The position numbers were made by a program, and so were the translations under genes. Positions 10,465-13,157 of a stretch of DNA of 15,490 nucleotides are shown one piece after another (positions within the stretch are counted from its first letter, which is position 1; each line of letters starts with the position of its first letter). Below the pieces are notes generated by a model. It made no database searches and was not told the DNA's origin. It worked only from the letters and a program-made list of their open reading frames with translations. This stretch comes from a virus (lineage: Duplodnaviria; Heunggongvirae; Uroviricota; Caudoviricetes), in the IMG/VR virus record IMGVR_UViG_2740892233_000004; one strand, 5' to 3'.

Positions 10465-10741
10465 GTGACTCTTAAACGGGCCTGTTCCCNNNNNNNNNNC
10501 TCCCTGCTGACGGTGAAATCCTTCAGTGAGGATGAACGGGTGATCACCGGGATTGCGTCAACGCCTTCTCCGGATCGGGATGGTGACATCCTGGAGCCGG
10601 AGGGCGCGGAGTTTGGCAGTGCGATACCGTTTCTCTGGCAGCATGACCATTCCCGCCCGGTGGGGCAGTGTACGGTGCGCCGGGTCAGCGAAGGGCTGGA
10701 AATCACGGCAACACTGGTGAAGCCCGTACCGGATATGCCGT
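10465..10741 (+). CDS. Prohead protease N-terminal part (spans N gap 10490-10499)
   Basis: GTG 10465 MTLKRACS, gap, then SLLTVKSFSEDERVITGIASTPSPDRDGDILEPEGAEFGSAIPFLWQHDHSRPVGQCTVRRVSEGLEITATLVKPVPDMP. Confidence 0.8.
10490..10499. other. Assembly gap (10 N)
   Basis: Run of 10 N. Confidence 0.99.
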
Positions 10742-10751
10742 NNNNNNNNNN
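10742..10751. other. Assembly gap (10 N)
   Basis: Run of 10 N. Confidence 0.99.
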
Positions 10752-10752
10752 G

Positions 10753-11154
10753 GCGGAGTTTGGCAGTACGATCCCGTTTCTCTGGCAGCATGACCATTCC
10801 CGCCCTGTAGGCCAGTGTACGGTGCGCCGGGTCAGCGAAGGGCTGGAAATCACGGCAATGCTGGTGAAGCCGGAGCCGGGGATGCCCTCCCAGATGGCAG
10901 CCCGGCTGGATGAGGCCTGGGCTGCCATTAAGACCGGGCTGGTCAGGGGGCTTTCTGTGGGCTTCCGGCCCCATGAATACACTTATCTGGACGGAGGCGG
11001 ACTGCATTTTCTGCGCTGGGAGCTGATGGAGGTGTCTGCCGTCACCGTGCCCGCGAATGCGGAATGCACCATCCGGACCATTAAATATTTCGACCGCCCG
11101 TTTTCTGCCGCGTCCGGCAACCGGAAACCGGTGGTGAAAATCGCATCTTCTGCC
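10753..11154 (+). CDS. Prohead protease middle to C-terminal part (allele), bounded by N gaps
   Basis: AEFGSTIPFLWQHDHSRPVGQC...GLSVGFRPHEYTYLDGGGLHFLRWELMEVSAVTVPANAECTIRTIKYFDRPFSAASGNRKPVVKIASSA. Confidence 0.8.
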
Positions 11155-11164
11155 NNNNNNNNNN
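11155..11164. other. Assembly gap (10 N)
   Basis: Run of 10 N. Confidence 0.99.
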
Positions 11165-11166
11165 CG

Positions 11167-11478
11167 CAACTGGCTGCCCGGCTGGATGAGGTCTGGGCGG
11201 CCATTAAGACCGGGCTGGTCAGGGGGCTGTCCGTGGGCTTCCGTCCCCATGAATACACCTTTCTGGACGGAGGCGGACTGCATTTTCTGCGCTGGGAACT
11301 GATGGAGGTGTCTGCCGTCACCGTGCCCGCGAATGCGGAATGCACCATCCGGACCATTAAATCTTACGACCGCCCGTTTTCTGCCGCGTCCGGCAACCGG
11401 AAACCGGTGGTGAAAATCGCATCTTCTGCCGGCGCTTCGGCACAGTCAATAACCTCTTTTCATAAGGAAAAGTCAGCA
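11167..11478 (+). CDS. Prohead protease C-terminal part; reading frame continues without a stop into the capsid gene
   Basis: Gap-free segment 11165-11977: QLAARLDEVWAAIKTGLVRGLSVGFRPHEYTFLDGGGLHFLRWELMEVSAVTVPANAECTIRTIKSYDRPFSAASGNRKPVVKIASSAGASAQSITSFHKEKSA then in-frame ATG 11479. Confidence 0.8.
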
Positions 11479-11977
11479 ATGAATACTGGTGAACAGATTA
11501 AAAGTTTTGAAAACAAGCGTGCGGCGCTGGCAGCCTCCCTTGAGGAGGTCATGACCAAAGCCGCAGAGGAAGGGCGCACGCTGGATGTGGAGGAGGAAGA
11601 GCATTACGACAACACCGCAGCGGAAATCCGTCAGGTGGATGCGCACCTGAAGCGCCTGCGTGAACTGGAAGCCGGTAAGGCCGCCACGGCGCAGCCGGTG
11701 AAACAGGCCGGTAACGGGAATGTGGCCGCGGTGGCTTCTGCGCCGGTGATCCGTGTGGAGCAGAAACTGGATAAGGGGATTGGCTTCGCCCGCTTTGCCA
11801 AATCGCTGGCTGCGGCTAAAGGCGTCCGATCTGAAGCCCTGGAAGTGGCCCGTCGTCAGTATCCGGATGACAGTCGTCTGCACCATGTTCTGAAATCGGC
11901 GGTGGGGGCAGGAACCACCACGGACCCGCAGTGGGCAGGCAGCCTGTCTGAATACCAGGAATATGCGCAGGACTTTA
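11479..11977 (+). CDS. Major capsid protein, HK97-like, N-terminal coiled-coil (delta/scaffold-like) region; has its own site (AAGGAA) and ATG, cut by N gap
   Basis: MNTGEQIKSFENKRAALAASLEEVMTKAAEEGRTLDVEEEEHYDNTAAEIRQVDAHLKRLRELEAGKAATAQPVKQ...; same frame as the upstream protease. Confidence 0.8.
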
Positions 11978-11987
11978 NNNNNNNNNN
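11978..11987. other. Assembly gap (10 N)
   Basis: Run of 10 N. Confidence 0.99.
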
Positions 11988-13157
11988 ACCAGTAAGGCCG
12001 CCACGGCACAGCCGGTGAAACAGGCCGGTAACGGGAATGTGGCCACGGTGGCTTCAGCGCCGGTGATCCGTGTTGAGCAGAAACTGGAGAAGGGGATTGG
12101 TTTCGCCCGCTTTGCCAAATCACTGGCCGCGGCTAAAGGTGTCCGCTCTGAAGCCCTGGAAGTGGCCCGTCGTCAGTATCCGGATGACAGCCGTCTGCAT
12201 CATGTCCTGAAATCGGCGGTGGGGGCAGGGACCACCACGGACCCGCAGTGGGCAGGCAGCCTGTCTGAATACCAGGAATATGCGCAGGACTTTATTGATT
12301 ACCTGCGTCCGCAGACCATTATCGGGCGATTTGGTCAGGGCGGGATCCCTGCACTTCGTCAGGTGCCGTTCAATATCCGCGTGCATGCCCAGGTGTCCGG
12401 TGGTGCTGCCGGCTGGGTGGGTGAGGGTAAGGCAAAACCCCTGACGAAGTTTGATTTTGAATCCATCACCTTCAGTCATGCGAAGGTGTCGGCCATTGCG
12501 GTACTGACGGAAGAATTGATCCGTTTTTCCAGTCCGGCTGCTGATGCACTGGTCCGTAATGCGCTGGCGGAAGCGGTGGTGGCGCGTCTGGACACAGACT
12601 TTGTGGACCCGAAAAAAGCGGCGGTGGCGGATGTCTCCCCGGCGTCCATCACCCATGATGTGAAGGGCACGGCATCAACCGGTAACCCGGATGCGGATGC
12701 AGAGGCGGCGTTTGGACAGTTTGTGGCAGCAAACCTGCAGCCCACCGGTGCGGTCTGGCTGATGTCCAGCACCAATGCCCTGGCACTGTCCATGCGTAAA
12801 AATGCGCTGGGTCAGAAGGAATACCCGGACATGACCCTGCTGGGTGGCTCCTTCCAGGGGCTGCCGGTGATTGTCTCCCAGTACGTGGGTGACCAGCTGG
12901 TGCTGGTGAATGCCCCGGATATTTATCTGGCGGATGACGGCGGCGTGGCAGTGGATATGTCCCGCGAGGCATCACTGGAGATGCAGTCTGAGCCGACCGG
13001 CGACAGTACCACGCCGTCCCCGGTGGAGCTGGTTTCCATGTTCCAGACAGGCAGCGTGGCCATCCGTGCGGAGCGCTGGATCAACTGGCGTCGTCGCCGT
13101 ACTGCGGCGGTGGCGGTGATCACCGGAGTGAACTACGGCAGTGCGTCCGGCGGCTGA
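11988..13157 (+). CDS. Major capsid protein, HK97-like, body (allele; 5' cut by gap), stop TGA 13155-13157
   Basis: ...WAGSLSEYQEYAQDFIDYLRPQTIIGRFGQGGIPALRQVPFNIRVHAQVSGGAAGWVGEGKAKPLTKFDFESITFSHAKVSAIAVLTEELIRFS...; first 80 aa match 11700-11977 with 2 substitutions. Confidence 0.85.
   Translation, partial: TSKAATAQPVKQAGNGNVATVASAPVIRVEQKLEKGIGFARFAKSLAAAKGVRSEALEVARRQYPDDSRLHHVLKSAVGAGTTTDPQWAGSLSEYQEYAQDFIDYLRPQTIIGRFGQGGIPALRQVPFNIRVHAQVSGGAAGWVGEGKAKPLTKFDFESITFSHAKVSAIAVLTEELIRFSSPAADALVRNALAEAVVARLDTDFVDPKKAAVADVSPASITHDVKGTASTGNPDADAEAAFGQFVAANLQPTGAVWLMSSTNALALSMRKNALGQKEYPDMTLLGGSFQGLPVIVSQYVGDQLVLVNAPDIYLADDGGVAVDMSREASLEMQSEPTGDSTTPSPVELVSMFQTGSVAIRAERWINWRRRRTAAVAVITGVNYGSASGG

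Follow-up and report, generated by a model that had tools for sequence, protein, structure and literature searches.

In phage HK97, the S78-family prohead protease gp4 and the major capsid protein (MCP) gp5 are encoded by separate genes located downstream of the portal gene, and the MCP carries an N-terminal helical scaffold (delta) domain, which has been described as a scaffold-MCP fusion (PMC10275583). In genes of the lambda C/Nu3 type, a long product with the protease is made together with a shorter and more abundant in-frame product that begins at an internal start (10.64898/2026.09.13.751334; PMC11565193). Fusions of protease and capsid protein in one gene have also been described. Actinobacteriophages of clusters EE, EL, AM, AU, AN and others, as well as phage MD8 (gp5), carry genes of the same three-part architecture (PMC7302621, PMC5513430, PMC8508860), and the same kind of gene is reported in PMC8306868, which cites Uchiyama 2009, for ORF003 of the Pseudomonas phage PAJU2, named "prohead protease fused capsid protein" (UniProt, "capsid polyprotein"). 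Dedicated fusion families exist in NCBIfam and PHROGs. Here, we analysed a protease-capsid gene in IMGVR_UViG_2740892233_000004, a tailed-phage record (Caudoviricetes) of 15,490 nt, which is called the window below and whose first letter is position 1. The gene is likely a two-start nested gene with dual initiation, as suggested by comparisons of the start signals inside it across its relatives. The fusion itself is already known; the new inference, a modest one, is the conserved internal start.

The protease and capsid parts meet inside one gap-free segment of the window. Positions 11167-11977 translate as a single open frame, in which ...RTIKSYDRPFSAASGNRKPVVKIASSAGASAQSITSFHKEKSA is followed by MNTGEQIKSFENKRAAL... 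at the junction (in longer form, ...SAASGNRKPVVKIASSAGASAQSITSFHKEKSA-MNTGEQIKSFENKRAAL...), in agreement with the original prediction, made from the sequence alone, that the protease C-terminus runs without a stop into an HK97-type capsid N-terminus in segment 11165-11977. About 270 codons without a stop, together with two specific domain matches, are far beyond chance. The prediction had also read the frame as open from 10465 to 13157, which fails literally but stands in the tiled open reading frame (ORF) and in intact genomes. The literal frame from 10465 ends at a stop at 12016-12018, with the capsid body (12015-13157) in a different frame, because 11989-12294 repeats 11672-11977, at 95% identity, from a different prophage copy. 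The stretch 10465-13157 was therefore rejected as one ORF, its segments being overlapping and non-collinear, and a tiling path (10465-10485, 10501-10741, 11165-11977 and 12295-13157) was used instead. This path yields a 1938-nt ORF of 645 codons with one terminal stop, close to the roughly 650 amino acids (aa) that had been expected, and its product is identical to the phage 2851 protein at 638 of 645 residues; the capsid body of the window maps to phage 2851 positions 6508-7676 at 98.1% identity. The exact junction variant of the window was also found in contiguous public contigs with intact ORFs of 641-645 codons. The fusion is real, and the proof of its continuity comes from these other assemblies, not from the window itself.

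The gene is a known and already annotated head gene of lambdoid/Shiga-toxin (Stx) prophages of the Escherichia coli O157 type, where such a fusion is nothing unusual. It belongs to a widespread family of HK97-like temperate phages, represented in this case by long-tailed lambdoid/Stx prophages of enterohaemorrhagic E. coli. Among 5426 complete E. coli genomes, 1251 contain a match to the segment (95-99% identity, up to seven places per genome), as do 93 phage records, including Stx1a-, Stx2a- and Stx2c-converting phages, phage 2851, YYZ-2008, JLK-2012 and BP-4795; the phage records give one 645-aa coding sequence (CDS) labelled "major capsid protein / head maturation protease" or "putative major head protein/prohead proteinase". 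The copies in lambdoid/Stx phages of enterohaemorrhagic E. coli (2851 gp60, BP-4795, YYZ-2008, JLK-2012, Stx2 phage 1717 and O157 prophages) are the same gene, with 95-99.8% protein identity, the same 645 aa, the same start and the same neighbours (HNH, TerS, TerL, fusion, small ORF and 859-aa portal). Nothing substantive differs, the copy in the window being pieced together from several prophage copies. The fused ORF is intact in the isolated, inducible phages 2851, BP-4795, YYZ-2008, phi330 and PAJU2. More than 2400 homologous protein clusters were found; the best 120 are mostly 643-650 aa in length, nearly all have both domains, and among them are fusions from Salmonella, Enterobacter, Klebsiella, Serratia, Pantoea, Kosakonia and others at 73-78% identity. 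We gathered 227 loci of 37-100% identity, at least 8 of them from genome contigs and the rest from three viral-contig scans and annotated phages. Classing based on hidden Markov models (HMMs) assigned 202 loci as fused and 22 as separate, a few of the latter evidently being pseudogenes. Some genomic copies are decaying, since the best-matching complete-genome copy, in E. coli 6817 (NZ_CP075003, L001 5739-10313), encodes a fusion protein shortened to 592 aa, with a frameshifted portal pseudogene after it, and the fusion genes of loci L080 and L082 are frameshifted.

In frame order, the protein is predicted to consist of an S78 serine protease, a disordered linker, a helical scaffold (delta-like) domain and an HK97-type capsid body. 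The HMM search that had been proposed as a check, run with Pfam on the intact protein, placed Peptidase_S78 at the N-terminus (PF04586, residues 48-152, 34.7 bits versus a cutoff of 21) and Phage_capsid at the C-terminus (PF05065, residues 386-635, 52.7 bits versus 24.2, E 1.5e-14). The HK97 major capsid model TIGR01554 matched residues 204-584 with 78.3 bits (cutoff 27.5), a coiled-coil-like Pfam hint was seen at residues 189-210, and phrog_617 covers the whole protein (3.3e-261). The equivalog model TIGR01543 gave 46.4 bits, under its cutoff of 59, so that by the NCBI criterion the protease is a family member and not an HK97 gp4 equivalog. NF045541, the NCBIfam model for prohead protease/major capsid protein fusions, reached 54 bits versus a cutoff of 525 and matched residues 48-287 only; the gene has the same architecture as that family and belongs to a different lineage. 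When the family profile was aligned by hhalign with HK97 gp4, whose catalytic residues we take to be Ser114 and His65, Ser110 (G-L-S-V-G-F) fell on Ser114, and His55 (W-Q-H-D) was one residue off His65 in this low-depth alignment. H55, S110, E135 and P142-A143-N144 (the E-x-S...P-A-N motif) are invariant in 20-26 homologs. The same approach, aimed at the crosslink and cleavage residues, gave no alignment between the family profile and HK97 gp5, the capsid body being too diverged; the best match in a sequence search of the PDB was marginal and was an MCP (E = 0.0019). An AlphaFold2 model, built from a 26-sequence alignment and with a mean predicted local distance difference test score (pLDDT) of 42, was used only for the boundaries of the linker and helices. 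It showed a folded protease core, disorder at residues 138-193 (pLDDT ~25), helices at 195-223 and 229-261 (pLDDT ~80), the first of these long helices beginning right after Met193, and a capsid body (residues 332-645) with pLDDT below 50. The scaffold domain opens with the conserved motif M-N-I/T-A/G-E-Q-I-K-S-F-E-x-K-R-A-A-L.

A putative second start signal lies exactly at this boundary. The AAGGAA site that had been noted before ATG 11479 is present in the window, 9 nt from that ATG (Table 1). An in-frame ATG was found within a few codons of the homologous position in 201 of the 202 fused loci, and in a non-redundant set of 58 fused ORFs at 80% identity the linker/scaffold boundary has a start codon in every case (57 ATG and one GTG). 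Protein alignment showed that the linker is hypervariable, with indels, and ends in an invariant Met-Asn that is followed by the conserved scaffold-domain start; the anchored Met column is 98% conserved, compared with 50% or less in the flanking columns. Every enterobacterial variant has AAGGAA, AAAGGAAA or AAGGGAAA located 8-10 nt upstream of the ATG. In E. coli, the reading frame splits the GGA core of this Shine-Dalgarno (SD)-like motif between a Lys and a Glu codon (aaG GAa), whereas in other genera the core is a single Gly codon. In 10 of 10 distinct variants this Gly is encoded by GGA, compared with 7.2% GGA among the Gly codons of the same ORFs, a codon choice that points to selection on nucleotides rather than on amino acids.

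The strength of the motif was compared by anti-SD duplex energies computed on the -20 to -4 region. The median was -7.05 kcal/mol for the junction ATGs, -6.9 for the genuine upstream starts and -2.4 for the other 807 in-frame ATGs (junction versus other ATGs, Mann-Whitney p = 1e-24, relatedness ignored), with the upstream start of the window gene itself at -10.3 kcal/mol. The junction ATG holds the best SD among the in-frame ATGs of its ORF in 36 of the 58 ORFs, where 4.2 would be expected, and in 19 the junction site is the strongest SD-like site of the entire ORF. After clustering at 60%, 9 of 25 representatives were in the top 5% (binomial p = 2e-6). The 60-nt stretch around the internal start also has less structure than other parts of the ORF (mean z +1.66); it falls into the least-structured decile for 67% of the representatives and, in the E. 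coli type, is the least-structured 60-nt stretch of the whole ORF. The signal was also seen in distant fusions, such as that of PAJU2 (48% identity), with AGGAGG 8 nt before the homologous ATG (Met197), and that of Chelatococcus (46% identity), with AAGGAGG 8 nt before it. In the fused genes, an in-frame internal start codon with its own ribosome-binding site (RBS) is located at a domain boundary and is conserved among relatives, which is one feature of nested genes of the lambda C/Nu3 type.

Comparisons with unfused relatives showed that the internal ATG is homologous to a genuine start codon. The unfused loci, about 20 in all, are those of Pelagibacterium, the Burkholderia phages vB_FUBS1 and vB_SBP9, the Moraxella phage Mcat6 and about 15 metagenomic viral contigs. 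Their protease frame is closed by a stop, and the start of the capsid gene matches the homologous position to within about one codon. Protease and capsid genes overlap by 4 nt at one extreme and are up to 192 nt apart at the other, and an SD of its own precedes the capsid start. Burkholderia and Moraxella members also keep the gene order of the lineage. The unfused lineages are scattered among the fused ones, several having 71-82% capsid identity to their nearest fused relative, and this nesting indicates repeated switches between the fused and unfused states, at least about six in number. That the two states interconvert so easily would be understandable if fused genes continued to express the capsid protein from its own start.

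In the proposed mechanism, initiation at GTG 10465, which has a strong AGGAGG, would give the full-length protease-linker-scaffold-capsid protein, and initiation at ATG 11479, with AAGGAA in an unstructured, A-rich context, would give a 453-aa scaffold-capsid subunit. We infer that the internal site is used and that the two products, which would share the scaffold and capsid domains, co-assemble. The protease domain lacks a stop codon that would end it separately, from which it follows that every protease molecule must be made as a fusion, and each full-length subunit would carry one tethered protease into the procapsid, the tether standing in for the C-terminal targeting tail of the free HK97-type protease. 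Once assembly was complete, the protease would cut away the linkers and scaffold domains. The original prediction had offered two possibilities, a polyprotein or nested products, of which the comparative evidence (the ATG, its SD, the codon choice and the unfused relatives) favours nesting without proving it. It had further assumed a fixed protease stoichiometry either way; this is true only of a pure polyprotein, and with nesting the ratio of the products would be set by the two initiation rates. A shared assembly domain that brings in the protease would be the same logic as that of lambda C/Nu3, HSV-1 UL26/UL26.5 and HFTV1 gp17/gp17.5. In the lambda C/Nu3-type genes, however, the nested product is scaffold only and the capsid protein has a separate gene, whereas the internal frame in the window runs through the capsid to 13157; their proteases are of the S49/S21 type rather than S78, and dual initiation is proven there but only predicted for the window gene. 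The reading probably extends, though with somewhat less assurance, to the "polyprotein" genes of this HK97-like lineage as a whole, which would in fact be two-start nested genes with an abundant internal capsid product and a rare full-length product carrying the tethered protease, and maybe to other fusions too.

Related and analogous genes differ from the window gene in several respects. PAJU2 ORF003 is a full-length homolog with 48% identity and the same architecture, and its neighbourhood likewise runs TerL, fusion, small ORFs and portal; it differs in its Pseudomonas host, its linker and a portal of normal length. The actinobacteriophage and MD8 fusions are independent lineages, most of them with the portal upstream, and the MD8 protease is lambda-C-like. 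In MD8 gp5 (L233 4371-6452), an in-frame SD and ATG were found at codon 185 (AAGGAGG, -11.4 kcal/mol) and at codon 220 (GGAG, -6.9 kcal/mol), neither of them at a clear domain boundary. Similarity to HK97 gp4/gp5 lies in the S78 protease family, the N-terminal helical scaffold domain of the MCP and the TIGR01554 match, with the difference that the window gene is fused and located upstream of the portal. The phages phiP27, SfII, ST64B and fLi-Aba03 were rejected as carriers of fusions, as they have separate protease genes in the canonical portal-protease-MCP order; the labels "major head protein" and "capsid protein" given to their HK97 gp4-like proteases in RefSeq/GenBank records are annotation errors (Table 1).

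The main alternative to dual initiation is a pure polyprotein, in which only the 645-aa product from GTG 10465 is made, every capsid subunit brings its own protease at 1:1, after assembly the protease cleaves itself off together with the linker and scaffold domain, and the internal ATG with its SD-like motif is a leftover of the unfused ancestor or is conserved for some other reason. We regard this as possible but rather unlikely. The ORF is uninterrupted in all intact copies, and autocatalytic cleavage of a polyprotein is the sole published interpretation that could be traced for a member of the family, given for PAJU2 in PMC8306868 (citing Uchiyama 2009); a polyprotein has also been assumed for the actinophage and MD8-type fusions (PMC7302621, PMC5513430, PMC8508860). 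Other observations weigh on the side of this alternative. The SD of the E. coli type, AAGGAA with a spacer of 9-10 nt, is moderate at -6.2 kcal/mol, which ranks in the 12th percentile of in-frame positions, 4 of the 58 lineages have no recognisable SD core, and frequent switching between fused and unfused states could leave recent relics. The moderate or missing SD also counts against dual initiation, as do further points. After clustering at 50%, none of the representatives of the six clusters was in the top 5% and there was no SD enrichment, indicating that the SD signal is lineage-dependent while the ATG is universal. The sequences are phylogenetically related, so that the p-values overstate their independence; the low structure and GC content at the junction could come partly from the amino-acid composition of linker and scaffold, and in GC-rich lineages GGAGG overlaps a semi-conserved Glu-Gly dipeptide, where selection may act at the protein level. 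Ribosome-profiling or proteomic support for two products was not found in the literature, nor was any report testing or proposing internal initiation in protease-MCP fusions, several key subscription papers lying outside the search; the papers covered describe these fusions as single genes only. Relics, however, should decay, yet the ATG and the GGA core are kept in the enterobacterial fused clade despite substitutions and indels in the linker, the start signals are kept in fusions down to 37% identity, and the internal SD is as strong as that of bona fide starts. A polyprotein would also put 415 extra protease-plus-linker domains of ~21 kDa into a T=7 procapsid, which by a rough, uncomputed estimate would about double the protein inside it compared with HK97 or P22.

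Two further explanations appear much less probable. The SD-like motif might be a translational pause site for domain-wise folding, with Met193 a structural residue at the start of the scaffold helix. The motif does lie exactly at the domain boundary before a long helix in the AlphaFold2 model, and a semi-conserved Pro-Lys/Gln-Glu-Gly peptide is encoded across it in GC-rich lineages; its canonical SD spacing (8-10 nt), however, is to an ATG that is a genuine start in unfused relatives, and nothing requires a Met at the helix N-terminus. SD-induced pausing is itself disputed. We consider a pause site highly improbable. Least probable of all is an assembly artefact or pseudogene, with read-through arising from joined prophage copies or from a stop lost in a decaying prophage. 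It is true that the window consists of non-collinear, overlapping unitigs of several copies, including a chimeric ORF at 9034-10401, and that some genomic copies are defective, as in E. coli 6817 (the 592-aa variant and frameshifted portal) and in the frameshifted L080 and L082. The junction of protease and capsid nevertheless lies within one gap-free segment, and the fused ORF is intact in complete genomes and inducible phages and across genera; these intact ORFs elsewhere rule out an artefact or pseudogene as the source of the fusion itself. Dual initiation within a nested gene remains the reading that we favour.

Table 1 Coordinates of the features at the fusion locus, of the spacers in the window and of the mislabelled protease genes
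Feature	Position	Strand	Remarks
N10 spacers	174, 249, 524, 795, 1614, 2761, 4187, 8211, 8866, 9296, 10109, 10490, 10742, 11155, 11978, 13815		
Terminator-like hairpin GAACCGCTGCGGCGGTTT with T-run	10426..10449	+	Between TerL stop (10401) and fusion start; function predicted
Upstream RBS and start of full-length ORF	AGGAGG 10454-10459; GTG 10465-10467	+	Same start annotated by RefSeq and GenBank in phage 2851 and E. coli genomes
Protease part and linker	10465..11478	+	Codons 1 to ~155, Peptidase_S78; codons ~156-192, hypervariable linker; lies across segments 10465-10489, 10500-10741 and 11165-11478
Catalytic-type codons	His55 10642-10644; Ser110 11230-11232	+	
Internal SD-like AAGGAA and in-frame ATG	AAGGAA 11464-11469; ATG 11479-11481	+	9-nt spacer; ATG is Met193
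Scaffold (delta-like) domain and start of capsid body	11479..11977	+	Within gap-free segment
Capsid body, HK97-type MCP	11988..13157	+	TGA stop 13155-13157
Small ORF, 73 aa, phrog_829	13202..13423	+	Between capsid and portal; overlaps portal start
Portal gene	13369..15490	+	Runs off the window; N10 at 13815-13824; maps to phage 2851 portal CDS
Mislabelled proteases (phages SfII, phiP27, ST64B and fLi-Aba03)	L229 3444-4094; L230 3444-4094; L231 3408-4094; L232 3477-4139		

Gene-context analysis showed that in intact genomes the neighbouring genes are a holin, a lysozyme, an antirepressor, Rz, an HNH endonuclease, TerS, TerL, the fusion, a small conserved ORF and the portal. The order of terminase, protease/capsid and portal that had been read from the window is present in gap-free genomes, with TerL, protease/MCP, small ORF and portal following each other in phage 2851, E. 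coli 6817, PAJU2 and the Burkholderia and Moraxella relatives. The canonical HK97-like order, which in HK97 is TerL, portal, protease and MCP, is not that of the fusion locus. The description of the order as atypical for HK97-like modules is thus correct in that it differs from HK97, but the order is a trait of the whole lineage, unfused members included: it recurs in Pseudomonas, Burkholderia and Moraxella relatives and is therefore not a local rearrangement. The small ORF is found at the same place in PAJU2 and in the Burkholderia and Moraxella relatives. The T-run hairpin upstream of the fusion start is the only terminator-like site within 10119-13814, and in HK97 putative terminators flank the protease/capsid genes at comparable places; a GC-rich hairpin, GGGAGGCGTGCGCCTCCC, is located after the capsid stop at 13173-13192 and has no T-run. 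An HNH endonuclease gene (5733-6095) lies directly upstream of TerS/TerL, a position typical of HNH genes in HK97-like cos-packaging modules.

The portal of the E. coli phage group is unusually long, with 859 aa (L002 7888-10467), about double the usual length; the portals of PAJU2 and of the Burkholderia and Moraxella relatives have 436-465 aa. An intact 859-aa homolog matched Phage_portal (5.9e-81) and TIGR01537 (1.9e-104). The Phage_portal domain covers residues 54-382 only, and the C-terminal ~470 residues have no Pfam match. A tandem repeat of 162 nt (54 aa), in 3.3 copies with 95% identity, was found in the C-terminal half (L002 9475-10007), and in the window the copies of this repeat at 15164-15490 are 85% identical to each other.

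The window is not a single continuous molecule. It is made of 17 segments joined by N10 spacers, neighbouring segment ends overlap and are non-identical (85-99% identity), and the mapping of the segments to the intact, gap-free phage 2851 genome is non-collinear and redundant, with breakpoints of different segments coinciding at 5580/5581, 5760/5763 and 6000/6001 of the phage 2851 locus. This pattern is as expected for unitigs of a multi-copy prophage family that were collapsed by a short-read assembler, and such overlapping, multi-copy segments justify the caution over gaps that accompanied the original prediction. The SD and GTG start of the fusion gene together with the end of TerL are present three times, with GTG at 8841, 9034 and 10465, and segment 10752-11154 is a redundant alternative copy (93.5%). 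The 455-aa ORF at 9034-10401 was rejected as a real gene; it is a chimera made by the spacers, consisting of the first 262 nt of the fusion gene and internal and terminal pieces of TerL across two N10 spacers. Two ORFs with DUF826 (1039-1485 and 1533-2009) lie in adjacent overlapping segments, with 83% identity between 1075-1613 and 1626-2138, and they probably represent a single gene in variant copies contributed by different prophages, not a true tandem duplication. Concatenated unitigs of multi-copy prophages can thus yield false chimeric ORFs, and ORFs that cross N10 spacers are unreliable.

The fusion itself changes nothing in the view of these phages, as it has long been annotated and is carried by many Stx phages and by roughly one in four complete E. 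coli genomes. If the gene is indeed nested, the "capsid polyprotein" annotation of a large gene family would be corrected, with an internal product that gene callers and annotators have missed, since existing annotations give one product and no internal start. How much protease enters each procapsid would then depend on the ratio of two ribosome-binding sites and not on a targeting peptide, and covalent tethering to a minority of capsid subunits would be a simple answer to the need to limit the number of proteases per procapsid. With both expression signals persisting, single mutations in a short spacer would be enough to flip the gene between the fused and unfused states. The principle known from lambda C/Nu3 and herpesvirus UL26/UL26.5 would thereby extend from the scaffold to the major capsid protein.

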